Positions 35,747 to 61,047 of a stretch of DNA of 64,000 nucleotides are shown piece by piece. Every line of letters starts with the position of its first letter. The stretch's first letter is position 1. Both the position numbers and the translations under genes were made by a program. Under the pieces are notes generated by a model. That model worked only from the letters and a program-made list of their open reading frames with translations, searched no databases and had not been told where the DNA came from. Origin of the DNA: Giardia intestinalis (taxonomy: Eukaryota); assembly GCA_000002435.2 (NCBI GenBank), contig CM018791.1. The stretch is one strand, 5' to 3'.

Positions 35747-38700
35747 TCAGCAGCGAGCTGCCTTTAAGAATTGTCTGTATATGTTACTCGTACGCACAAA
35801 CGTTATGGAGTGCATGCTATAAAGGTAAGCTTCTAAAAGCCTTGCTCGTTCCCTAATAAACTCCGGCTTCCAGCCGCCCAAAGCGTAAGGCCTGTCGGGT
35901 GGGATGTCAGGCAAAGTCGCTGCAGGATAGGCCGCAGAGATTGCCGCGTGAAGCTCCTTGACCTCCGAAAAGCGGCAGCTTATGTGGAGCCTCCTGCCGT
36001 CCATGCCCAGCTCAATGTAGTAACTAATGAAGGGTCGCGACCCAGAAATAATAACAGTGCGGTGGCTCAACACCTTGACATAGAAACTGGAGCATGACGA
36101 GGTGTCGACGAACAGGGATACATGTCTGCCGCTATCCCTATGCTTGTTGCTTCTAACTATGGACGATGCAGCTCCATGGCCACTCCTTCTAATTGCACTC
36201 AGTGTCTGCACAGACGGATCATACTCAACAGAATCGGATTCTCTCTCTAGTTGAGCCTCGATGTTGTGCCGTAAAGCCTGAAGCTCCTTGTCGCGCCTTT
36301 CACGAAGGCGAATCTCACGCATCAGCTCTCTATCCAAAAGAAGGCCACTATTAGTTGTGTCTATCGCAGAAGACGTCGTAGAGTTGGACTCTATCTGCGA
36401 ATTGACAGCGAAGCGTTTCCTCTCTGCCTCAAGTTTTTGGTACTCACGGTCAGCTTTGCGATTGGCCCGTTCAATCTCCTTGTCCATCCGCAACTTCTCT
36501 TCGGCTAAAAGACGCCGCAGCTCTTTCTCTTCCTGCCGTTTCTTCTGCTCCTCAATCTTTCGAAGTTGCTCTTCACGCAATTTCTCTGCCACGGCGATGT
36601 CTTCGCTGTGAGAGGACTCTGTTAGAGATGATACGGTTGTAGACGTCTCGCGCTCCATAGGCTCCTTCTTGTCCTTCTGCTGCTTCTTAGCAATCTTCTT
36701 ATCTGCACGACGCGTCTCGGTAGTGGATTTGATGGTGGAGTGGGGCTTAGACGAAGAAGTGTCTCCGTTAATCTTCTGTGGCTTTTCTGCTGGTGCGTCT
36801 TTAGTTTCCTTAATGAGGTCGGGCTTCTTCTTGATTGCGCTAGTCTTCTTTTTGTCTGCTTCATGCTTCGGTTCCTTCTCAGGCTTCTCAAGCTTCTTCT
36901 CCTTCTTCTGCTTGGCAGCATGATGCTTTTCCTTGGCATGTTCATCCCTCTGATGCTCCGCTTTATGCTTGGTATGTGATTTGGGAAGATGCTTTGGTGG
37001 AGTGTGTAGTTCTACAACAGGTGTATTCAGCCTATCAACATACAGGCTATCACTATCCTCATTATCGACGACCAAACTTATCGCAGGAGTATCAAGCCTG
37101 GATACAACCAAAGAGTCCTCCTGCACTTCTTGTTCTGTACGTAGAGCTGCATGGCCTGTCTCGTCCTCAAGCCCTTGAGGCTCTTCCTCTTGGCAGTATA
37201 GGTCCTCCTCGGCCTGGCGCAGCATCTCCTCCTCTTCACGTCGCGCCTGCTCAAGCATCTCTGCCTCTTTGCGAGCCATTTCAATATCAAATTCATCCAG
37301 CGTCTCTTCCGGAAGCTGAAGTACCCCTTCCGGTGTAGGCTCATATTCTTGTTCGTGGACCGACACCTGCTGTTCAATATAAGGCTCTTCTTGGCATACA
37401 TCAGAAGATTGTGCTAGCCCAAACGACCCATCGAGAACGTCAGGAGTTGCGACACGATCAACAACCAAATCCTCAGAAGGCAATAGCAGGCTCTCTGGCC
37501 CATGCGAGTCAGGTGGGGCAAAGTCGTCCGGAGTACTATCACAAGGAGTGACCTGACGATGGACCGAGCTTGCACAGCTATGTTCCTCTAGGGCTGGCTG
37601 TCCCCATTGAGATATCTCGCTTTTGAGTTCATCAATAAGGTCACTGTCTTGTATTCTCTCGAATGAATCCGATTCAGTCTTGTTAGAAATGTGCTCCAGA
37701 GGTGGAGCTGTCTCCATATCAGGCAAGCTCTCCAGGTCCTTGATCTCAGGGGTGTGTACTACCGCATCCTCAATGATAGCCTCCGCCTCACGAATGCTTC
37801 GTTCTGTCTCCGGGTCTGTTTGCAGTCTGGAAACAACATCCTCAGATACGTACTCATCAGCGTTGGAGAAGCTTCGCAAAAGCTCTACCTCCTGACTGCA
37901 TTGCGGTTCCTCGCTCAGGACCTGCTGTAAAGACTCGTCACAAGGTAGAGCCATGCTTATCTCCTCGCGGCTCTCAATAGGTACTAGCTGTTGTGGTTGT
38001 ATGTCCCTGAAGACTCTGTCCGCTCCAACAGCTGCGCGCAAACGCAGAATCTGATCTATGACCAGCATCTTCCTGACTCTGCGGAGATGCTCGAGCAGAG
38101 CTGCTGAGTCTTCTGCTTGAGCGGGGTCGACGACCTCTGGCCCTTGAGCAAAGGCTGTCTGAGGACTGGGGTCAATGGGGACTGAATCAGAAGGCGTAGG
38201 TACCCTGGAGACGCATATCGGAACGGCTGAGATGTCATTGTCTGAGAACGGCATAACTGGAGTCACATCAGAAAAGGCAGCCAAATCTGGGGCAGGTGCC
38301 TCACTAATTGCGGCAGGCGTCGATGGCGCATCATCAAAGCCAAAGAAGCCGAAAGCATCATTAGGCTCGATAGCGTCGGGGACCTCAGCGGCGCCATCCG
38401 CAAGGTTAGCCCCAAAGCCGAACATTTCATCCGGCTGCTCTGCAGGAGGGTCATTGGTGTTTGTTGGTTCGAGCATGTATTGTGGCTGGACATCATCGTT
38501 GTCGGGATTCTCGGGCCTAGGGGCCTCATCCTTACAGGTGTCCACGGGCTGGTCTTGTGGCTCATCATCAATAGGCCCTGCCTCCAATTTGGGTTCGTCG
38601 TTGTGCAGTTCCTGAGGATCATTGTAAGCATTATCTTCTGGCAAGCCATAGGCATATGCGTATGGGTTGGAACCATCACCGGCCACGTAAGGGGCGCCAT

Positions 38701-38824
38701 AGTAGTCCATGTCCGCGGCCATTGCGTAGGGGTTCTGGTGGTCACCAGTGGTCTCGTCCTGGCTCGTCCCGTAGTCCCCCCATCCATAGGCTTGGTATCC
38801 GCCCTGCTCCTGATCACCGTCCAT
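35747..38824 (-). CDS. PX-domain protein (C-terminal PX) with N-terminal acidic FGF motifs and a K/E-rich coiled-coil (GlPXD-family-like)
   Basis: C-terminal PX: 'YYIELGMDGRRLHISCRFSEVKELHAAISAAYPAATLPDIPPDRPYALGGWKPEFIRERARLLEAYL'. N-terminal 'EMFGFGAN' and 'DAFGFFGFDDAP'. The ORF-track start at 38881 is GTG; the first ATG at 38824 is preceded by 'cttaaaaaaATG'. Confidence 0.75.
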   Translation of the reverse strand: MDGDQEQGGYQAYGWGDYGTSQDETTGDHQNPYAMAADMDYYGAPYVAGDGSNPYAYAYGLPEDNAYNDPQELHNDEPKLEAGPIDDEPQDQPVDTCKDEAPRPENPDNDDVQPQYMLEPTNTNDPPAEQPDEMFGFGANLADGAAEVPDAIEPNDAFGFFGFDDAPSTPAAISEAPAPDLAAFSDVTPVMPFSDNDISAVPICVSRVPTPSDSVPIDPSPQTAFAQGPEVVDPAQAEDSAALLEHLRRVRKMLVIDQILRLRAAVGADRVFRDIQPQQLVPIESREEISMALPCDESLQQVLSEEPQCSQEVELLRSFSNADEYVSEDVVSRLQTDPETERSIREAEAIIEDAVVHTPEIKDLESLPDMETAPPLEHISNKTESDSFERIQDSDLIDELKSEISQWGQPALEEHSCASSVHRQVTPCDSTPDDFAPPDSHGPESLLLPSEDLVVDRVATPDVLDGSFGLAQSSDVCQEEPYIEQQVSVHEQEYEPTPEGVLQLPEETLDEFDIEMARKEAEMLEQARREEEEMLRQAEEDLYCQEEEPQGLEDETGHAALRTEQEVQEDSLVVSRLDTPAISLVVDNEDSDSLYVDRLNTPVVELHTPPKHLPKSHTKHKAEHQRDEHAKEKHHAAKQKKEKKLEKPEKEPKHEADKKKTSAIKKKPDLIKETKDAPAEKPQKINGDTSSSKPHSTIKSTTETRRADKKIAKKQQKDKKEPMERETSTTVSSLTESSHSEDIAVAEKLREEQLRKIEEQKKRQEEKELRRLLAEEKLRMDKEIERANRKADREYQKLEAERKRFAVNSQIESNSTTSSAIDTTNSGLLLDRELMREIRLRERRDKELQALRHNIEAQLERESDSVEYDPSVQTLSAIRRSGHGAASSIVRSNKHRDSGRHVSLFVDTSSCSSFYVKVLSHRTVIISGSRPFISYYIELGMDGRRLHISCRFSEVKELHAAISAAYPAATLPDIPPDRPYALGGWKPEFIRERARLLEAYLYSMHSITFVRTSNIYRQFLKAARC

Positions 38825-51547: not shown

Positions 51548-53347
51548 ATGTCTAATAGGTTTACCACCCAGACGGTGTTGGACTCCGTCCTCAAGAGCCG
51601 GGGCCTGTCCAGCTCAGACACGGAAATGCATGAACTCCCTGCTAGGTGGTCAGCAGTGGCGTCACACCTGTCTTCTTTTTTGCAGTGCGAAAATAACCCG
51701 CTGGAGTGCTACACAGCGATGTATGAGGCGGTCATAAGCCAGCCATGTCTCTCCTTCGAGCAGGACTGCCAGTGTGGGTCGTGCTCAGAGCGCGTGACGG
51801 AGTTCTTCCATTTGGGACCTTGTTCTCACAAGCTCTGTAAAGCCTGCCTCAGAAAGATGTTTGACCAACTCAATGATGAATGTCTGGTCTGCAATGAACC
51901 TATTAGAGAGCTCGCCTTCTGCAAACAGCCTGGCTCCATGCCTCCTCCACCGGCGCTTGTGCCGCCGCCTCTTGCTCTTCCTACCAAGGCCACCCCTGCC
52001 CCTGCACCCGCCTGCGAAGAGTGCCCTGTCTTTGCTTCTATTCTTAAAAAGAATGGTCTGCCACCAGACACGTCCGGAATTGTCCATGGATACAAGAAAA
52101 TCAAACAGATTAATTTACTGGAAGATGACTACATATCGTCTCCTCCTACGGGACAGACCCTTATTCCGGAGGAGGACTTGATATACCTCAGGGACTATAT
52201 GAAGTTTCAGTTCCTACACTTCTTCGAGGAAGTCGATGCCAGCGAGACTATCTTTTGCGCATGGAAGGGCGGCGACGCGGCTGAGCACCAACTCGAGTGT
52301 CCTCTCCGCGAAGATACGTGCAAGAATAAGGCACTTGGTTGCAGCTTTATGCAGCCATACATCATTGTAGCGTATCACGGGATAAACTGCGAGAATATAT
52401 GCCTCTACGAAAGTCAGCCGTGCCCTCTATGCAATAAGACAGTACTGAACAAGGACATGTACACCCATGAGGTCACTTGCTCTAAGAAGCTCATAGAAGA
52501 GCATAAGGAGAAGGTCAAGTCTTCGCAGAAAGAGTACATCGCTGGGGCTCAAGCTACTTTCGCTGCTGAGGCCTCCAAGGAAAACTCTCCTATGAAGAGC
52601 GCGTCTCCCAACAATCCGAATAGCAATCCAAGCATCGTCTCTCCTGAGAACAGGTCCGATGATGACATCAAGGGTATCACGATTAGGGATGCCTGCGAAA
52701 ACATGAACGTGCTGGGAGAGATGTATTGCGACCTTGTGACAGCTGCTCGCCCAGATATATACTCTAGCACCTCCAGCGCTGTCAACTCTTCTACTGACGT
52801 AAGGGGAAGCAGGGAGCTTTTACGCGATCCAACGGAGATTGTTGTGATAGGGCCTGCTGAGCTCTCACCTGAACAGGTCAAAGACATAAAAAGAACCAAG
52901 TCTCCCAAGTCTCCGAAGAGGTCTGGTGCATCGGAAAAGAACGATAACTCGAGGAAAGAAAGGAAGGGAACATCAGAGGCGCGTGTCTTATCTTACGAGG
53001 TCTGCTCCACTGGGTCTGGCCATCCGTTTGTGGTCTACAAGATCGAGCTCCCAAGCCAGGACGGCGGAGAGAGCGTAGTCATCCATAAGCGAATGAAGGA
53101 GATCAAGGCGTTCCACAAGCGCCTGCAGCGCAACTTTCCAAGTATCACGCTGCCCAAGCTTCCGCAGGACAGGCCTTGGGCACTCGGAGGGAACAAGCTT
53201 AAGTTTGTTCAGGAGCGCTCCAGACTTTTGGAGGCATATTGTGGAGACATCAATCACAATGCGATGATATATAAATCGAGGATTTATAAAGACTATATTA
53301 ACGAGCAATGCGCTTATGTGCCGATCACTTATGCTCTTAAAGAGTAG
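51548..53347 (+). CDS. RING-finger plus TRAF-type zinc-finger protein with a C-terminal PX domain
   Basis: RING-HC 'CGSC..(11)..CSHKLCKAC..(11)..CLVC'. Cys/His-rich TRAF-like finger 'CPLREDTCKNKALGCSF...CPLCNKTV...HEVTC'. C-terminal PX 'VVYKIELPSQDGGESVVIHKRMKEIKAFHKRLQRNFPSITLPKLPQDRPWALGGNKLKFVQERSRLLEAY'. Confidence 0.7.
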   Translation: MSNRFTTQTVLDSVLKSRGLSSSDTEMHELPARWSAVASHLSSFLQCENNPLECYTAMYEAVISQPCLSFEQDCQCGSCSERVTEFFHLGPCSHKLCKACLRKMFDQLNDECLVCNEPIRELAFCKQPGSMPPPPALVPPPLALPTKATPAPAPACEECPVFASILKKNGLPPDTSGIVHGYKKIKQINLLEDDYISSPPTGQTLIPEEDLIYLRDYMKFQFLHFFEEVDASETIFCAWKGGDAAEHQLECPLREDTCKNKALGCSFMQPYIIVAYHGINCENICLYESQPCPLCNKTVLNKDMYTHEVTCSKKLIEEHKEKVKSSQKEYIAGAQATFAAEASKENSPMKSASPNNPNSNPSIVSPENRSDDDIKGITIRDACENMNVLGEMYCDLVTAARPDIYSSTSSAVNSSTDVRGSRELLRDPTEIVVIGPAELSPEQVKDIKRTKSPKSPKRSGASEKNDNSRKERKGTSEARVLSYEVCSTGSGHPFVVYKIELPSQDGGESVVIHKRMKEIKAFHKRLQRNFPSITLPKLPQDRPWALGGNKLKFVQERSRLLEAYCGDINHNAMIYKSRIYKDYINEQCAYVPITYALKE

Positions 53348-53426: not shown

Positions 53427-55535
53427 ATGGAGGAGTTTTTTGGGTTTTCAGACGCGCCGGTTGCTCCTGGCCACGTCTCCGAGGAGGCTCTGTTCTTTGG
53501 CTTTGATGACGCCTCCGCTAACCAGCCGCAGCCCCCCGTCTCCATTCCATTTCCAGTTATCAACCAAGTCGCGACCATCCCAAGGTTTCAGGAGTTCCAA
53601 GAGTTCCAGGAGTATGACTCGCCAGAGCTTCGGGCAGCCAGGCAACCCAAGTTCCTGGATCCAGCACTATTTGTGGGCCCTGGGAGAGAGGACGTCATTC
53701 ATGATGTGGTGATAGATGAGGCAAAGTACGACTTCGGCTACGACCTTGACTACCTGCGAGAAACCACAGATGAGATGAAGACCGAAGAGGACGAGGAGGA
53801 CATAATAAGTAGGCTTCCCTACGGCTTTTCCTCCAACTACACATACAAGGACGATATGGCAGATCTTATGCGTAGCAGCCCTGTGAAAGACATTGTTCTC
53901 CCCCGGGTTGGTGTCACTGTAGAGTGCTCCGACAGTGACATGGAAGCAGAATTCAACCGTCTGCAAGCTATAGACTTCAACGAGAAGCGCAAGGACATAG
54001 AACAGATGCTTCGCATTCGTAGAGAGCAGGAGCACCAGAGAAGGCAAGAGGAAGAGCAAGAACGACTGCGGCAAGAGGCCCTTAAAGCTCAGAGCTCAGT
54101 TCCATCCCGGATCCCCTCTATTCCGGCCGCCGCCCCATCTGCCACTATTGCCTCTGATAGAGCAGTCGGACCTGCTGCCGTTCCAAGCCTTCCTCCCCTG
54201 TCTCAGCCAATGGTTGACGTTGCTCCGCAGCCAGAGCCCCAGCCAATTATGGATCTCCTGATAGCTCCAAAGGCAGTGGAGGCGGTGTATGCCCCGTTAC
54301 AAGCTACCCCTGTACAGCCTATCCATACCCAATCTTCCATTTTAGTGCCATCAGCTCCACCAGCGGCTACTCTGGCCCCTCAAGTATGCTCTATTGAGCA
54401 ACCTCCCTCAGAGGATCCTCAGCTAGAGGAAATGTTCGGATTCCAGTCACAACCCGATATTAGTTACTCCCCAGAAGTCAAGGATCTAGATAAGATAGAG
54501 CCAGACTTGACCGCAGATCCTGCCACAAATCCGGTTATCGTGGACCAGCCTGTCTCAAAGTCGTGGAGCGCAAGAGGATCGATACAGCAGCAGCTAGACA
54601 ATCTACAGAGCGAAATAAAGCAACTAGAGCAAGACTCCATGTTTTCTAAAGAAGATAGAAAGCGGAGCAGACACGCAGAAGCCCGTAAATATCTCGAAAC
54701 CAGAACATATACAGACAACTACGACGTTTTCAGACCGTCGCACCATCTACAGAAGTACTATGCAGCGAAGAAGCCAAAACCAAAGCCAAAGGAAACCATT
54801 TATTCCCCATACTCAGAGACGGAGCTATCGAACCAGCGCATGCAAGTGCGAGCAGAGCTGGAGGCTCAGAAGCACAAAGAGCAGCGGGAGCGCAACTACT
54901 ACGAGAAAATTGAGATCAAAAGGCTAACAGCCATGTACTCCAAGCTCGAATCTGAATTAACCGTCAAAGCCATCAGTGAGGAGCTTGCACAAGAAAAACG
55001 TCAGGAATTTGAAAAGTACTTCAAGAGCGCGTCCCTCCTTGAAAAGAGCTCTGACATGTACACCAGCACACACGATGATAAGACCATACGCATACAGGTA
55101 TCTGAGCATAACGCTTTGCATCTCCCCCGGTCCCTCTTCTTCACCCCTGATGGGAAGTATAAAAACTACGTTAGATACCTGGACTATAGGAAGGTTTTCG
55201 ACCGCTTCACGCACACGCAGGTCCTTATGTTCATATTCGCGGTGTCCTCGCAGGAGCGAAAGTTGAAGTGCATTTCCAAGACTTACGAGGACTTTCATGT
55301 CCTTCACAAGGAGCTTGTGGGGGCCTTCGGGTACTCAGCAGTACCTGGGCTTCCCTCCTTCCGATCCATGAACATGGGTGGCGGTAGACATGAGGTCATT
55401 CATGACACTCAAAAGAGACTAACCAAGTACCTGACTGAAATCAACAACGTCCAGGCTCTGCGCACATCCGCCATCTACAGGAGCTTCCTCAAGCACCAGG
55501 ACCTCAACTTTTTCCAGGGGATGCATCGCCACTAG
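53427..55535 (+). CDS. PX-domain protein (C-terminal PX) with N-terminal acidic FGF motifs and a coiled-coil
   Basis: Starts 'MEEFFGFSDAP...EEALFFGFDDAS'. Later 'LEEMFGFQSQPD'. C-terminal PX 'TYEDFHVLHKELVGAFGYSAVPGLPSFRSM...VIHDTQKRLTKYLTEI'. Confidence 0.7.
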   Translation: MEEFFGFSDAPVAPGHVSEEALFFGFDDASANQPQPPVSIPFPVINQVATIPRFQEFQEFQEYDSPELRAARQPKFLDPALFVGPGREDVIHDVVIDEAKYDFGYDLDYLRETTDEMKTEEDEEDIISRLPYGFSSNYTYKDDMADLMRSSPVKDIVLPRVGVTVECSDSDMEAEFNRLQAIDFNEKRKDIEQMLRIRREQEHQRRQEEEQERLRQEALKAQSSVPSRIPSIPAAAPSATIASDRAVGPAAVPSLPPLSQPMVDVAPQPEPQPIMDLLIAPKAVEAVYAPLQATPVQPIHTQSSILVPSAPPAATLAPQVCSIEQPPSEDPQLEEMFGFQSQPDISYSPEVKDLDKIEPDLTADPATNPVIVDQPVSKSWSARGSIQQQLDNLQSEIKQLEQDSMFSKEDRKRSRHAEARKYLETRTYTDNYDVFRPSHHLQKYYAAKKPKPKPKETIYSPYSETELSNQRMQVRAELEAQKHKEQRERNYYEKIEIKRLTAMYSKLESELTVKAISEELAQEKRQEFEKYFKSASLLEKSSDMYTSTHDDKTIRIQVSEHNALHLPRSLFFTPDGKYKNYVRYLDYRKVFDRFTHTQVLMFIFAVSSQERKLKCISKTYEDFHVLHKELVGAFGYSAVPGLPSFRSMNMGGGRHEVIHDTQKRLTKYLTEINNVQALRTSAIYRSFLKHQDLNFFQGMHRH

Positions 55536-55611: not shown

Positions 55612-58600
55612 ATGGAGGACATTGCCTACACCGACGGATACGCTGCGCAGTACGGAGATAATTATGCATATGATGGGTATGGCTATGGTGGTGACCTGGC
55701 TGTGGGAGATTACAATCCGTACGGAACGGACTATGGTTATGATGCAGGAGGCTACGACTATGGTGCCGGGTACGGTGGGTATGGGAATCAAGAGACTGGA
55801 TATGGCGATCAGACATATGGATATGGTGAGCCTGCTGAGCAACCGCAAGACAGTTTATCGCTTAAGCTGGACGAGCCGAAGCCGTTTACTGAGCAAGACG
55901 ATGGGAGGTCCCTCGTCGTCCGTACTGATGCGGCGTCTGTGTCCATGGATCCTTTTAGTGCGCCCATAGATACAGTGACAGAGCCCATAGGTTCACAGAC
56001 GCACACGAGCTCCGCTTTTCCACCTGTCTCTCAGGACTTGCTGAACTCTATCAGGGTCCAGCAAGAGACTAGTGGAAACCTGAGTAAGTCTCCAAGCAAA
56101 ATCTCAAGCAGGCCTGCCTCTGCTAGACTTGACGAGCTTGATAAGGTAATCGAAGAAGATGCAGAACAGCTTAATAGGGAGGCCAAAACAGATACTCACG
56201 TTACTGGTGCTGCCCCCGATACTAGCGATATGTTTGGCTTTACTGACCAACCGGCGGCACCAACAGCTACCGAAGAGCCTGTCGCAACTGCTGGTGACGA
56301 CATGTTTGGATTTGGGCTAGAAAGTGACGCGCACGATGCAACGGTTCAGCCCCCAGTTGAAGATGCAGGGCCTGCTCTACCTGATAAAGAAGCTCCCTCC
56401 ACTGAGGCCGAAGACGATATGTTTGGCTTCGCCACATCTCCTCAGGAGACCATAGCCAGCCCTCCAGCAGGCTCCACCGCCCCTGCTGCTGAGCCTGTTG
56501 ACGACATGTTTGGCTTCACCGATCCTGCCGTCGAATCAGCGGCTACTGCAGAGCCAGGAACAATGGAGGGCGATGATATGTTTGGATTTGGCCCCTCAGA
56601 AAGCACACCTAAAGATCCTGACACTGATGCATCTGCAGTAGCTAAGGATGTAACGGTGGACGCTCAAGATGCTGCCGATGATATGTTCGGTTTTGATGGA
56701 GCGGGCTCCCCTGCAGAGGCTCCTGCACAATCAACCGAAGCAGTAGCAAGCCCAGTTGCTGACTTGGAGACGGACAGCATGTTTGGCTTTGATTCTCCGC
56801 CAGCCCCAGCAGATAATACTACTACTGTGCCTGTGGATGATTCGGCGGATGACCTGTTCGGATTTGGGCCTTCCACTTTAGATGCACAAGGTGAGCCCGC
56901 CCAAGATGCTCAGCCAGATATTCAAGATGTGGCACAAGTCTCCGCTGACAGCATGTTTGGCTTTGACTTGCCAGCTGATGCCTCGGCAACTGTGGAGCCA
57001 TCAACTACCGGCCTTGCTACTGAGAAGCCAGAGGATTCTCCTGTCGATGACATGTTCGGCTTTTCTCCAAACGAAGCAGCAGCTACAGCCAAGTCAGATG
57101 AGGATCAAGAGATAACGCCGGTGAACACCAAGACTTTAGACGAACCATTGTCAGTAGCAAATGATTACACCCAACCAACAGCTGGGCCCTCAGATGACAT
57201 GTTCGGCTTTGGAAACAGCGCAGATCTTCCTCAAACAGATTCTGTACCCCACTCTGGAGCCACGGCTGATAGCATGTTTGGATTTGACTCTGTACCAGCA
57301 ACAGGGGCCTCGGTAGAACCACCAACAGAGACGCCAGAGCTTCACGACGCATCTCAGACACAACCTACTTTGGACATGCCAACAATTCCAGAGCACATCC
57401 CAACTATAGAGGATAACCAAACGGACCTGTCACATGAGAGTCAAAATGAGAGTCAAGTTGCAAGTGAAGAGTCTGATCAGCTAAGAGAGACCAATGAGAC
57501 GCTGGAAGGAGAGGAAATGAATAAGGAACTGGCACAAGAGCCCGCTGTAGAGGATATGTTTGGCTTTGGGGATGCATCAGCGCCAGTGGAGGATTCCTCA
57601 ACAGAAAAGGCCACTGAAAGCCACCCAACTGAGCCACCTAATTTAGCAGATCTTCCACCTCCTGTGTCTGCATCATCACTGCTTCCCGTGCAGACACTTG
57701 AGTCTGCGAAGCAATCCGCAAGAGCTGCAACTACCCCAGTGGCCGATATGGCCATTGATATAGATTCTATGATCTCGGCTGCACTAGTTCCACAGCAACC
57801 CTCCCCCGCTCCTGAACAGAAGGTCGAGGACCAAGTTCTTGACGAATCCTCGCCTAACGTGATAACTGCAGAGCTTCCTCCCATTGTTGTGAAGGGATCT
57901 TTAGAAGAGGCCAACGACAAGTCTGCCGCAGAGTCGCAACATGAACCAGTAGAGCTCTCGGAGGACCGTGACCTCAGTAAAGATATCGAGCTGGTTGCTC
58001 AAGATCCTCTACCGGCCGAGGAGGATACGCAGGATATTTTTGTTGAGCCAGCTGTGCCAGTTGAAGCTCTAGAAAGGTTGGCGATCAGCGAAACGTTCAT
58101 CAAGCTCCAGGAGGAGCTTCAATTTACATACCTGATGCCAGAGCCTAACCGCGAAGAACTAGACAAGCTCCAGATGACTGATCATGAGCAGCAGCTTATT
58201 CAACTTAAGGACGAAGCGGAGCGGCTACAGAGAGAGAATAAGGTGCTCGCAGGCAGAAGTGCGGCTCCCAGGCATCTCCACCCTAACGAGTTTGATAGCA
58301 AATCTATCTCAGTTAGCTTCTTCGAGGGTCTTCTGAATGAGCCCACCCACAGTGATGGCATATCCCTAACGACTGGGGAAGAGCTTCGGCTCTTGGCGAT
58401 TCTGGAGCAGGGAGACTACGAAGCACTTGATGCTCTTCACGGCATGTCTCCAGAGGAGCTTCAGTTAATGGAGCAACGAGAACGCGAGTTCAATTTGAAG
58501 CTCAAGGAACTCACCGACCGCCGAGACGAGCTGTTGTACAAGGATGATACGGAGGCTTTAAAACTCATTGAGGAAGAGATCTGGGCCTTTGTAGACGCTG

Positions 58601-61047
58601 AGGAAGAAAAGAAAATGCGCATCCAAGCGGCAGACGACCTTTTGAAAAAGCGTGCTCAGGAGGAAGAGGACCGACGTCGTGCTGAGATAGAAGCAAAGAT
58701 CAAGGAGGAGCAGGATCGTGTTGCAGAGGAGCGCCGACTCCAGGAAGAGATGATAGCGCTCCAAAAGAAGCAGCAGCAAGAGTATGCAGAGCAGGAGACT
58801 AGGAAAGCAGATCTTCTCCGTGAGGCCATGGAAAAGGAGCAACTAGAGCGAATTGAGGAGGAGCAGCGCATAAAAGCAGAGGCACGACGACGCCTAATCG
58901 ACGATCTGGAGGCCACAGCTGAACGCGCAGCCGCCGAGGACCGGATACGGGTTAAGGCTGAGTTGGAAGAAATGGCCAGGATCAAAAAGGAACTGGAGGA
59001 GGCTGCCCGGACGGCCAGCGAAGAGAAGCGAAAGCTTCTTCTACAACAGAAGGAGCAATTGGAAAGAGAAATGGCCGAGACAGCAAGACGACACGAGGAA
59101 GACGTGGCGCGTAGGCACAAGGAGCTGCAAACTCTTCATGAGGAGCGGCGGAAGATGCGCGAACAACGCTTAGCCAGCTCAGAACCGATGGATGAGCTTC
59201 TTCGCGAAGATGGCAACGATGCCTCTGCCGATCCGTTCTCATATGCGTCTCTGGACATTGAGCGCAGAATCAGGGAAATGAAAGCCCAGTTAGAGAAGGA
59301 GATGACCGAAAAGATGGCCCTAGAGCACGCTGACCTCAATGCTCTAGAGCAGGAGTTGGCTGCTAAGAAGCTGTCGACCTTACAAGCAGAACGACTCTTA
59401 AGCACGGCTGCAAGCGATACAGTGGCACGGCTCGATAACGAGGATCGTCTCTTTAACGAAGCAATGGATGCCAAGCGCCAGGAGCTGCTTCTTTTGAAAG
59501 AACAGTATGGACTCGTGCGTCACCAGAACGAAAGTCAGCGCGCCTTGCACCTAGAGGAGCAGAGAAAGGCTAAGAAGTTAGCGAGGTTAGTCGAACAAGT
59601 TGCCGAGCTAGCCGAGAAGAAGCACAATTTAGAAAGAAAGATTGCCCATGGAAACAAAGAGTTTCACAAGAAAGAGAGCAAGCTGGTGGCTTCTAACAGC
59701 AAAGGCGCACTCAAAGCGTTGAGAAAGGAGCACGCTAAGGAGCACGAGGCGTTGGAGACGCAGCTCTCTAGCGTCTCAGAGCAGTTACGCAGAGCAAAGA
59801 AGCAGCTCAAGGTACTTAACCCCCAGGGAGAGACTTCTGATATGGACCGATCTCTTAGTGTCAAAGACTATTTGCGCTCCACAGATCGGAGTGAGAAAGA
59901 GCAAGAAGTGTCCGCTGCAGATAAGGACCATTCCCAGCCGCGTCTGTCCGTCTTCGAGGGAGGCTCTCTTGGCCAACCTTCGTTGGTAAGCGGCCATGGA
60001 ATTGGAACAGCGATGTCAACAGGTGTGGACCACGGAGATGGAGGGAGAAAGCAACATGCATCCAGTGACTTGCCTGTAGCGCTGCAGAAGCTGAGAGAGG
60101 AGCACGCTCGCAGGCTTGAGAAGATTGAGCAGCGACGAGCAGCCTTTGCTTCGGAAAGGGAGCAGCTTCAAGCCCAGGCACACGCGCTCGAGGCTCAGCT
60201 TTCCAAGCCCGTCAACGTTCCTGATTCTAAGCTACGCACCAGAGAGCAGCGCAAGCAGATCATTTTCGCAGAGATGAATAGAATGGAAAAGCTGTCGAAG
60301 GCACACATGGTTGAAGTTAAGCCTCAGATCCCAGAGAAAACAATCGATGACATTCTTAACGAACGCCGCAAACGACACGGGGAGGAGCGTGAGCAACTAA
60401 AGAACATGGCAGTGCGCTTTACATCTGCGTACGATCGGCATTCCCGGGTCTCTGTTAACATGGACAGCAGCGACGACGAATGGAATGACCTAGCTGCACG
60501 GACCTCCTCACGTTATGCAGATATTTCTGCTAAGCCACGCTCGATGCAGGCGCAGGTCCGCCAATTTGCATCTGATCGGATAGATCCTGCCTTCAATAGC
60601 TACATCGAGGCCCCTGTGCGACCTGGCTATGAGTCCTCTCTCCTCTCGTATGTGAAGGTGAGCTCTGACCCTACTACGTGCCACCCGACCAAGTTTGTGG
60701 CTCGGCTCACTGCACACACCTGGTGCATTGAGCAGAAGAGCAAGCCGTATGTGGTCTATACGTTTACAATCAGCACAGAGAAGGGTGTCTTTGAAGTAGC
60801 GAAGCGCTTCTCTGAGCTGCGTGAGCTGGACAAGGCGCTCCGTCGCGTTTTCCCAACAGTTACTTTGCCCAAGTATCCGTCGTCTATGGGAGGGAAGTTT
60901 ACTGATGAACAACTGGAGGAGCGGAAGCGGCTCCTTGGGCGCTATATGAGCCAGCTGAATCAGATCGCGGTCATTAGAACAAGCCAGGTGTACAAGGAGT
61001 TTATACAGATGAAGGTGAGACACGATATCCTTGTATATCACCGGTGA
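55612..61047 (+). CDS. Giant PX-domain protein (1811 aa): a 13-copy acidic 'DDMFGF' motif array, then a long E/R/K-rich coiled-coil, then a C-terminal PX
   Basis: N-terminal Y/G-rich segment. 13 copies of (D/E)(D/S)(M/L)FGF(G/D/T/S) at irregular spacing of about 25-35 aa. A coiled-coil of about 650 aa. C-terminal PX 'YVVYTFTISTEKGVFEVAKRFSELRELDKALRRVFPTVTLPKYPSSMGGKFTDEQLEERKRLLGRYM'. Confidence 0.8.
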   Translation: MEDIAYTDGYAAQYGDNYAYDGYGYGGDLAVGDYNPYGTDYGYDAGGYDYGAGYGGYGNQETGYGDQTYGYGEPAEQPQDSLSLKLDEPKPFTEQDDGRSLVVRTDAASVSMDPFSAPIDTVTEPIGSQTHTSSAFPPVSQDLLNSIRVQQETSGNLSKSPSKISSRPASARLDELDKVIEEDAEQLNREAKTDTHVTGAAPDTSDMFGFTDQPAAPTATEEPVATAGDDMFGFGLESDAHDATVQPPVEDAGPALPDKEAPSTEAEDDMFGFATSPQETIASPPAGSTAPAAEPVDDMFGFTDPAVESAATAEPGTMEGDDMFGFGPSESTPKDPDTDASAVAKDVTVDAQDAADDMFGFDGAGSPAEAPAQSTEAVASPVADLETDSMFGFDSPPAPADNTTTVPVDDSADDLFGFGPSTLDAQGEPAQDAQPDIQDVAQVSADSMFGFDLPADASATVEPSTTGLATEKPEDSPVDDMFGFSPNEAAATAKSDEDQEITPVNTKTLDEPLSVANDYTQPTAGPSDDMFGFGNSADLPQTDSVPHSGATADSMFGFDSVPATGASVEPPTETPELHDASQTQPTLDMPTIPEHIPTIEDNQTDLSHESQNESQVASEESDQLRETNETLEGEEMNKELAQEPAVEDMFGFGDASAPVEDSSTEKATESHPTEPPNLADLPPPVSASSLLPVQTLESAKQSARAATTPVADMAIDIDSMISAALVPQQPSPAPEQKVEDQVLDESSPNVITAELPPIVVKGSLEEANDKSAAESQHEPVELSEDRDLSKDIELVAQDPLPAEEDTQDIFVEPAVPVEALERLAISETFIKLQEELQFTYLMPEPNREELDKLQMTDHEQQLIQLKDEAERLQRENKVLAGRSAAPRHLHPNEFDSKSISVSFFEGLLNEPTHSDGISLTTGEELRLLAILEQGDYEALDALHGMSPEELQLMEQREREFNLKLKELTDRRDELLYKDDTEALKLIEEEIWAFVDAEEEKKMRIQAADDLLKKRAQEEEDRRRAEIEAKIKEEQDRVAEERRLQEEMIALQKKQQQEYAEQETRKADLLREAMEKEQLERIEEEQRIKAEARRRLIDDLEATAERAAAEDRIRVKAELEEMARIKKELEEAARTASEEKRKLLLQQKEQLEREMAETARRHEEDVARRHKELQTLHEERRKMREQRLASSEPMDELLREDGNDASADPFSYASLDIERRIREMKAQLEKEMTEKMALEHADLNALEQELAAKKLSTLQAERLLSTAASDTVARLDNEDRLFNEAMDAKRQELLLLKEQYGLVRHQNESQRALHLEEQRKAKKLARLVEQVAELAEKKHNLERKIAHGNKEFHKKESKLVASNSKGALKALRKEHAKEHEALETQLSSVSEQLRRAKKQLKVLNPQGETSDMDRSLSVKDYLRSTDRSEKEQEVSAADKDHSQPRLSVFEGGSLGQPSLVSGHGIGTAMSTGVDHGDGGRKQHASSDLPVALQKLREEHARRLEKIEQRRAAFASEREQLQAQAHALEAQLSKPVNVPDSKLRTREQRKQIIFAEMNRMEKLSKAHMVEVKPQIPEKTIDDILNERRKRHGEEREQLKNMAVRFTSAYDRHSRVSVNMDSSDDEWNDLAARTSSRYADISAKPRSMQAQVRQFASDRIDPAFNSYIEAPVRPGYESSLLSYVKVSSDPTTCHPTKFVARLTAHTWCIEQKSKPYVVYTFTISTEKGVFEVAKRFSELRELDKALRRVFPTVTLPKYPSSMGGKFTDEQLEERKRLLGRYMSQLNQIAVIRTSQVYKEFIQMKVRHDILVYHR
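56227..57570 (+). repeat. In-frame array of 13 degenerate repeats encoding the short linear motif D-D-M-F-G-F (DNA core 'gayrryatgttyggmtty') separated by divergent acidic spacers
   Basis: Recurring 'gatatgtttggcttt', 'gacgacatgtttggattt', 'gatgatatgttcggtttt', 'gacagcatgtttggcttt' and similar at about 56227, 56299, 56416, 56500, 56572, 56672, 56776, 56848, 56950, 57043, 57193, 57270 and 57553. Confidence 0.7.

Follow-up and report, generated by a model that had tools for sequence, protein, structure and literature searches.

What function could maintain thirteen copies of one short acidic-aromatic peptide, of the type DDMFGF, in a single PX domain protein? The question is raised by a 64,000 nucleotide stretch of contig CM018791.1 (assembly GCA_000002435.2) from Giardia intestinalis WB C6, termed the window, in which the open reading frame (ORF) 55612-61047(+) encodes a protein of 1811 amino acids. 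The protein matches XP_001710121.1/UniProt A8B344 exactly, and Cernikova et al. 2020 (PMC7058353) give GL50803_16595, termed GlPXD2, as the gene of A8B344 in their Table 1. Thus, the ORF is GlPXD2, a published interactor of clathrin and of AP2 at the interface between peripheral vacuoles (PVs) and the plasma membrane (PM). We find that this known clathrin-assembly protein carries a real and strongly selected multivalent array of short linear motifs (SLiMs). The reading that we favour, with a probability of roughly 0.55, is that the array is a multivalent partner-docking region of GlPXD2, which would be a monomeric membrane adaptor of Giardia clathrin assemblies. The gene is organized as follows:

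55612..61047, + strand: GlPXD2 gene, comprising a Tyr/Gly-rich N-terminus, the acidic disordered motif array, a long helical/coiled-coil region and a C-terminal PX domain
56179..57621, + strand: disordered acidic array region, amino acids 190-670 (481 amino acids), supported by composition, charge-hydropathy and AlphaFold2 (AF2)
60781..61008, + strand: PX (phosphoinositide-binding) domain, amino acids 1724-1799 (Pfam PF00787, E = 1.3e-13)

The PX domain was the only domain found in a Pfam scan of GlPXD2, and according to the authors of PMC7058353 the annotation of the protein is limited to it. Its C-terminal position, together with the exact match to A8B344, places the protein in the Giardia PXD family (GlPXD1-6), and the original prediction that the array resides in a coiled-coil PX protein was correct. 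On the orthologues of the strains P15 and GS an older NCBI/UniProt name, 'liver stage antigen-like protein', is found. Our literature search recovered no paper describing the DDMFGF motif, and only PMC7058353 names GlPXD2. In the legend to its Figure 1A there is a reference to 'positions of repetitive motifs', but the parts of the text covered here, which exclude the figure itself, contain no description of DDMFGF. The array is therefore apparently undescribed as such, and it would represent a new motif sequence on a PX/coiled-coil scaffold, in a putative analogue of AP180- or Eps15-type adaptors.

Translation of the ORF yields exactly 13 FGF-centred motifs within residues 205-655, in full agreement with the count and the coordinates first proposed. 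The 7-mers extend from nucleotides 56224-56244 to 57550-57570, have the consensus [D/E/S][D/S][M/L]FGF[G/D/T/A/S] and are spaced by 24-49 residues, plus one gap of 94. Copies 1-9 and 11-13 were each found conserved in P15 and in assemblage B. The individual copies are:

56224..56244, + strand: motif 1, SDMFGFT
56296..56316, + strand: motif 2, DDMFGFG
56413..56433, + strand: motif 3, DDMFGFA
56500..56520, + strand: motif 4, DDMFGFT
56572..56592, + strand: motif 5, DDMFGFG
56677..56697, + strand: motif 6, DDMFGFD
56773..56793, + strand: motif 7, DSMFGFD
56848..56868, + strand: motif 8, DDLFGFG, the only WB copy with a literal DLF
56947..56967, + strand: motif 9, DSMFGFD
57046..57066, + strand: motif 10, DDMFGFS, fused with copy 11 in two assemblage B isolates
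57193..57213, + strand: motif 11, DDMFGFG
57268..57288, + strand: motif 12, DSMFGFD
57550..57570, + strand: motif 13, EDMFGFG
Example of a 15-mer motif peptide from the array: EAEDDMFGFATSPQE

In 20,000 residue shuffles of the whole of GlPXD2 the tripeptide FGF occurred 0.07 times on average and three times at most, and shuffling of the 481 amino acid segment alone gave a mean of 0.09 and the same maximum. Compared to the 13 copies observed, these values exclude chance. The similarity among the sequences between the motifs is at the level of shuffled sequences (mean local score 24.1 versus 22.9), and a DNA tandem repeat spanning the array is not detected by Tandem Repeats Finder. Thus, a motif of 6-7 residues recurs 13 times between flanks that are not related to each other. 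Moreover, the synonymous positions within the motifs vary, since TTT and TTC, GGC, GGA and GGT, as well as GAT and GAC are all used. A six-frame translation of the whole window contains 27 FGF triplets, 19 of which fall within GlPXD1, GlPXD2 and GlPXD4. Only these 19 have acidic residues just upstream, and six of the remaining eight do not belong to a long ORF.

The array is embedded in a polyanionic chain. Amino acids 190-670 consist of 22% Asp and Glu, 2% Lys and Arg and 43% Pro, Ala, Thr and Ser, which results in a net charge of -97. Without exception, the 26 Phe of the region are inside the motifs; Trp is absent and there is a single Tyr. Charge-hydropathy analysis puts the segment on the disordered side, and AF2 predicts mostly coil, with a predicted local distance difference test score below 50, over almost all of amino acids 192-648, the one short helix being at 617-629. 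The AF2 run rests on an alignment of four sequences and serves as supporting evidence only. The disordered acidic context and the mutually unrelated spacers support the original prediction of a multivalent SLiM array rather than a structural repeat.

The segments N-terminal to the array are conserved as well. Amino acids 1-57 (55612-55782) form a Tyr/Gly/Asp-rich low-complexity N-terminus, MEDIAYTDGYAAQYGDNYAYDGYGYGG..., which is almost invariant among assemblages A, E and B (dN/dS, omega, about 0.02) and could serve as another module for interaction or for self-association; the N-terminus of GlPXD4 (38668-38824(-)) is similarly Tyr/Gly-rich. Just upstream of the array there are a DPFSA site at amino acids 113-117 (55948-55962), which assemblages A, E and B share without any change, and a block of 57 amino acids at 131-187 (56002-56172), SSAFPPVSQDLLNSIR...DELDKVIEEDAEQL, which includes a DLL and is nearly invariant in the same assemblages. 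Omega for the block is 0.012-0.054, and AF2 helices at 141-154 and 169-191 overlap part of the block. Both may be further coat-binding elements.

Is the motif itself under selection? We compared GlPXD2 with its orthologues from assemblage E (P15, locus L001, 14057-19489) and from assemblage B (P0079; GS, locus L003, 10001-15337), and with a series of further assemblage A and B isolates. Each of the 13 motifs has its counterpart at the orthologous position in A1, A2, E and B. When the copies of three lineages are pooled, FGF is unchanged in all 39. Position -3 is Asp or Glu in 35, position -2 is Asp in 30 and Ser in seven, and position -1 is Met in 34, Leu in three and Val in two; position +3 is more variable (Gly 14, Asp 12, Thr 5, Ala 3, Ser 2, Glu 2, Ile 1). 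Between WB and P15, 72 of 78 residues of the motif 6-mers are identical (92%) versus 252 of 403 in the spacers (62.5%; Fisher p = 3e-8). Between WB and assemblage B the corresponding values are 69 of 78 (88%) and 167 of 403 (41%; Fisher p = 2e-15). The codons of residues identical in WB and P15, in contrast, differ at similar frequency in motifs (17/72) and spacers (67/252; p = 0.65).

The same picture emerges when WB and P15 are compared by the Nei-Gojobori method. The motif codons have a rate of non-synonymous substitution (dN) of 0.041 and of synonymous substitution (dS) of 1.16, with an omega of 0.035, as compared to 0.215, 0.52 and 0.415 for the spacers. For the PX domain the values are 0.025, 0.70 and 0.036. 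The motif is therefore kept better than its flanks at the protein level, and its dS is no lower, which means selection on the protein and not gene conversion or homogenization of the DNA. As judged from these substitution rates, purifying selection maintains the motif peptide as strongly as the folded PX domain. Selection on the peptide together with synonymous degeneracy, as suggested at the outset, is thus supported by the difference in omega and by the varying codons.

These data also bear on the possibility that the array is low-complexity sequence without a function, or a repeat of an antigenic or structural kind. The old name 'liver stage antigen-like protein' and the position of the array in a fast-evolving region, with a spacer omega of about 0.3-0.4, would be in line with it. 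However, a motif omega at the level of the PX domain already contradicts neutrality, and the 13 positions are kept across lineages that are near synonymous saturation (overall dS about 1.7). The mutually unrelated spacers do not fit a homogenized repeat, and GlPXD2 is cytosolic, at the cell cortex (PMC4954726, PMC7058353). On the basis of the selection data and the unrelated spacers we reject both an antigenic repeat and a repeat homogenized at the DNA level, and consider this whole class of explanations extremely improbable.

The number of motifs is almost fixed and does not vary freely between isolates, an outcome that the original prediction had left to such a comparison. A1, A2, E and B each have 13 copies, and eight of the 12 spacers have the same length in WB, P15 and P0079. 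Alleles with 12 copies were found in two assemblage B isolates, SRR3177748 and SRR3177763 (loci L021 and L022, 1001-6214 in both), in which an in-frame deletion of 38 amino acids fuses copies 10 and 11. The junction of the deletion lies within a run of 20 identical nucleotides common to the two copies, GCAGAAGACATGTTCGGCTT, indicating that motif DNA can mediate the loss of a unit. From the sequence, the 12-copy alleles look as if one motif copy had recombined unequally with another or slippage had occurred between them.

The conservation of the motif positions is also relevant to the question whether the array needs a folded partner at all. The Phe pairs might be aromatic stickers that, together with the Tyr/Gly-rich N-terminus, form a cohesive meshwork or condensate gluing PVs and coat proteins to each other. 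The stickers are regularly spaced, the aromatics of the region are confined to them, the N-terminus is almost invariant, and over-expression of GlPXD2 causes large membranous clusters of PVs that label for clathrin (PMC7058353). Moreover, five of the 13 copies read FGFG, fitting FxFG, and the best match of the motif profile in the PDB is Nsp1, although neither this match (E = 1.2) nor the one to SidJ (E = 2.6) is significant. A net charge of -97 and only 2% basic residues, however, disfavour homotypic cohesion. A generic sticker would also require neither an invariant Gly nor the preferences for Met at -1 (34/39), for Asp or Glu at -3 (35/39) and for Asp at -2 (30/39). Finally, GlPXD2 is localized to PVs and not to the nuclear envelope (PMC4954726, PMC7058353). 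We therefore regard an array of mere stickers as quite improbable. The likeness to cohesive FG motifs that had initially been proposed comes down to the non-significant Nsp1 match.

The motif is shared by two paralogues encoded in the window, as the original prediction had stated, although not once or twice in each: GlPXD1 has three copies and GlPXD4 has two to three, namely DEMFGFG and the overlapping pair AFGFFGFD. The genes and motifs concerned are:

53427-55535, + strand: GlPXD1 (A8B343, GL50803_7723), upstream neighbour of GlPXD2
53430..53450, + strand: GlPXD1 motif 1, EEFFGFS, amino acids 2-8, conserved in P15 and GS
53487..53507, + strand: GlPXD1 motif 2, ALFFGFD, amino acids 21-27
54426..54446, + strand: GlPXD1 motif 3, EEMFGFQ, amino acids 334-340
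51548-53347, + strand: GlPXD3 (A8B341, GL50803_16596), RING finger and PX domain, upstream of GlPXD2
35747-38824, - strand: GlPXD4 (A8B322, GL50803_42357)
38411..38431, - strand: GlPXD4 motif, DEMFGFG, conserved in assemblage B
38327..38359, - strand: GlPXD4 overlapping double motif, DAFGFFGFDDA, conserved in assemblage B

In P15 and GS all three GlPXD1 positions retain an acidic, hydrophobic-FGF motif with small substitutions. Both GlPXD4 sites are kept in assemblage B, for which the N-terminal sequence was taken from a BAH15c1 contig, while their flanks have diverged. GlPXD3, in contrast, has no FGF motif. The motif thus tracks the clathrin-interface subset of the PX proteins, being present in conserved copies in GlPXD1 and GlPXD4 and missing from GlPXD3.

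With regard to the locus as a whole, four of the six Giardia PX domain genes (GlPXD4, GlPXD3, GlPXD1 and GlPXD2) are found inside 25 kb of the window, and three of them are in direct tandem. Only one of the four, GlPXD3, is equipped with an N-terminal RING finger, and it is also the one devoid of the FGF motif. On the assemblage B BAH15c1 contig JXTI01000001.1 (locus L002, 2700-9827) one side of a peroxiredoxin gene is occupied by a TLD domain gene and by a gene for a 1311 amino acid protein with no Pfam match on record. At the same place WB, P15 and GS have a block consisting of a gene for a 1101 amino acid protein, GlPXD3, GlPXD1 and GlPXD2 instead. Either a rearrangement or a join in the assembly would account for this difference.

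What does the array dock to? Published co-immunoprecipitations (co-IPs) link GlPXD2 strongly and reciprocally to the clathrin heavy chain (GlCHC) and to AP2 alpha and beta, and one-sidedly to AP2 mu and sigma (PMC7058353). The protein is found at the cell cortex, at PVs (PMC7058353, PMC4954726). Stimulated emission depletion microscopy places GlPXD1 and GlPXD2 at the PV-PM interface together with clathrin foci, and GlPXD3 intercalates between PVs (PMC7058353). The PX domain of GlPXD2 binds PI(3)P and PI(4,5)P2 in vitro (PMC7058353). The products of ORFs 7723 and 16595 have previously been regarded as possible links between clathrin and membranes (PMC4954726). The gene numbers of the candidate partners are GL50803_102108 for GlCHC, 17304 for AP2 alpha, 21423 for AP2 beta, 17195 for GlNECAP1 and 4259 for GlACLC.

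In the mechanism we propose, the C-terminal PX domain would anchor GlPXD2 at the PV-PM interface, on membrane marked by phosphoinositides, and the helical region of approximately 700 amino acids would space or oligomerize the protein. The disordered, polyanionic N-terminal chain would display the 13 [DE][DS][ML]FGF peptides, to each of which a folded coat domain would dock weakly, and the avidity of many weak sites would cluster clathrin/AP2 and hold it on the membrane. GlPXD1 and GlPXD4 would employ the same motif at low copy number. The clathrin of Giardia forms no vesicles, and its clathrin assemblies are static. The valency of the array would explain the clustering phenotype, and it could be one reason why the assemblies are static. 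We infer that contact is made through the motif and that the partner domain is the clathrin terminal domain and/or the AP2 appendages.

Several points weigh against a role of the array in docking clathrin or AP2. GlPXD3, which has no motif, nevertheless shows strong co-precipitation of clathrin and AP2 (PMC7058353), meaning that the motif is not needed for association in cross-linked co-IPs. These co-IPs used dithiobis(succinimidyl propionate) cross-linking (PMC4954726), and the interactions with clathrin and AP2 may therefore be indirect. GlCHC is highly diverged. The literal DLF occurs in only one of the 13 WB copies, copy 8. The array also contains no strict match to any of the established motifs that we searched for by regular expression. 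The clathrin box (ELM LIG_Clathr_ClatBox_1, L[IVLMF].[IVLMF][DE]) has no match anywhere in GlPXD2, and the gamma-ear motif (ELM LIG_AP_GAE_1, [DE][DES][DEGAS]F[SGAD][DEAP][LVIMFD]) has none in the array. The AP2 alpha-appendage motifs DP[FW] and F.D.F are absent from the array, as is the AP2 alpha-appendage/NECAP motif W..F; DPF is present only at amino acids 113 and 1207 of GlPXD2. Finally, a HMMER search with amino acids 1-980 of GlPXD2 against 1.84 billion representatives retrieved only the assemblage B orthologue and two frameshifted fragments, and neither G. muris nor any other diplomonad, nor any relative outside assemblages A, B and E, was recovered; conservation of the array is shown for these assemblages of G. 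intestinalis only.

A scan of metagenome DNA for two spaced MFGF codon strings yielded 16 loci, none of them Giardia-like; they are non-coding repeats plus two phage-like ORFs. One match (locus L012, 6900-7150, CAACVF010000044.1) lies on a contig with a GC content of 36%, in an ORF with three VDMFGFPIK repeats. Another (locus L019, 7445-7528) is a tandem GDMFGFDGVGSPLQSMG duplication in an ORF that, as judged by eye, resembles a phage tape-measure protein. Both are unrelated to Giardia and probably represent chance or phage repeats.

The lack of a canonical clathrin or AP2 consensus would be explained if the docking SLiM were real but had another partner, such as GlACLC, GlNECAP1 with its PHear-type domain, the SNAREs Gl5785, Gl10013 and Gl14469, ESCRT or retromer. 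The evidence for selection and disorder fits this scenario equally well. Moreover, the GlPXD2 interactome includes three SNAREs, GlNECAP1 and GlCLC/ACLC (PMC7058353), and among the phosphoinositide-binding proteins the clathrin light-chain analogue GlACLC is found in the interactomes of GlPXD1 and GlPXD2 only. The links to GlNECAP1 and GlCLC, however, are weak or of low stringency, whereas those to GlCHC and to AP2 alpha and beta are strong and reciprocal, and retromer and ESCRT subunits are not listed among the GlPXD2 partners in the text of PMC7058353 considered here. We therefore consider a partner other than GlCHC or AP2 unlikely.

As to retromer, the acidic Leu-Phe 'LFa' repeats of FAM21, which bind VPS35, resemble the array in that many acidic Leu-Phe copies are carried on the long disordered tail of an endosomal scaffold. 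In FAM21, however, the acidic run comes after the LF and not before it as in the GlPXD2 motif, which speaks against retromer in particular.

Docking of clathrin or AP2 thus remains our preferred reading. A further-reaching version of it, which we put forward only tentatively and with the odds somewhat against it, is that D-[D/S]-[M/L]-F-G-F is an uncatalogued, Giardia-lineage class of clathrin/AP2-binding motif. The principle of the clathrin-assembly proteins would then have been rebuilt on PX scaffolds (GlPXD2, GlPXD1 and GlPXD4) in the absence of ANTH/AP180 proteins, and the array would be what makes the assemblies static. No ANTH homologue has been found in Giardia, according to the parts of PMC7058353 cited here. 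In either version the array offers a concrete and mutable candidate for a coat-binding interface, consisting of 26 Phe in 13 motifs, and the motif can be searched proteome-wide to predict further members of the assemblies. The candidate clathrin-assembly proteins of Zumthor et al. (2016) number 32 and include GlPXD5, GlPXD6 and GlFYVE. The question of how Giardia tethers its static clathrin thereby becomes directly testable.

How does the array compare to known systems? The original prediction had likened the motif to ligands of the GAE domain, of the AP2 appendages and of NECAP (WxxF), and for these the regular expressions retrieve nothing from the array. A GAE, NECAP or WxxF ligand is ruled out on this basis, and the aromatic spacing also differs, being F-x-F in the array and F-x-x-phi in GAE ligands. 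The more general idea of an endocytic SLiM array of the acidic-Phe type holds, even though the motif classes that were named fail. The FxFG/GLFG repeats of nucleoporins resemble the array in having FG motifs within long disordered regions, including the FGFG form of five copies, but differ from it with respect to the strongly acidic spacers, the PV localization and the PX domain of GlPXD2. An FG nucleoporin was ruled out, given FGFG in five of 13 copies, the Nsp1 match at E = 1.2 and the published localization to PVs. As to the clathrin box, L-phi-x-phi-[DE], which binds site 1 of the clathrin terminal domain, MFGFD (four copies) and LFGFG resemble its pattern and share the acidic context. The strict pattern, however, is found in none of the 13 copies: Met occupies the first position, and only four of 13 end in Asp.

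The DPF/DPW arrays of Eps15 and epsin, which are ligands of the AP2 alpha and beta2 appendages, likewise consist of many acidic-aromatic D-x-F copies on a disordered chain and have a tie to AP2, which for GlPXD2 is the reciprocal co-IP with AP2 alpha and beta; DP[FW] itself, however, is missing from the GlPXD2 array. By analogy, the DLL/DLF clathrin-binding array of AP180 appears to be the closest functional counterpart. AP180 has 12 repeats of about 23 amino acids with one DLL/DLF each, and the affinity of every repeat for the clathrin terminal domain is about 0.2 mM, the binding scaling with the number of motifs (PMC5694535). Nuclear magnetic resonance shows that AP180 motifs are promiscuous, binding to the appendages of AP2 alpha and beta2 as well, and that Gly or Ala is preferred after the L/F, a DLFGDAF site having higher affinity (PMC11246429). 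In GlPXD2 this Gly is part of D[ML]FGF. D[ML]F is found in 10 of the 13 WB copies, all of which read D[ML]FG, and the remaining three have Ser-Met-Phe with Asp at -3.

Some features set the two systems apart. AP180/CALM has an ANTH and GlPXD2 a PX domain, and the proteins are not homologous. The array is C-terminal in the former and N-terminal in the latter, where the helical/coiled-coil region of about 700 amino acids separates it from the lipid-binding domain. The GlPXD2 motif is also longer and stricter: Met takes the place of the Leu in 34 of 39 copies, and Gly-Phe follows without exception. The overall design is similar. Both AP180/CALM and GlPXD2 combine a folded phosphoinositide-binding module with a long, acidic, Pro/Ala/Ser/Thr-rich disordered region, in which short D-[L/M]-[L/F] motifs, roughly a dozen in number, are spaced by 20-35 residues, the minimum in GlPXD2 being 24, and both associate with clathrin and AP2, as seen for GlPXD2 in cross-linked co-IPs of the full-length protein. 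GlPXD2 may thus act in the manner of the AP180/CALM DLL/DLF array, which has no counterpart in Giardia, or of the Eps15 DPF array. If the partner is confirmed, this would be a case of convergent evolution, in which a multivalent adaptor of the AP180/Eps15 type has arisen on a different membrane-binding domain.

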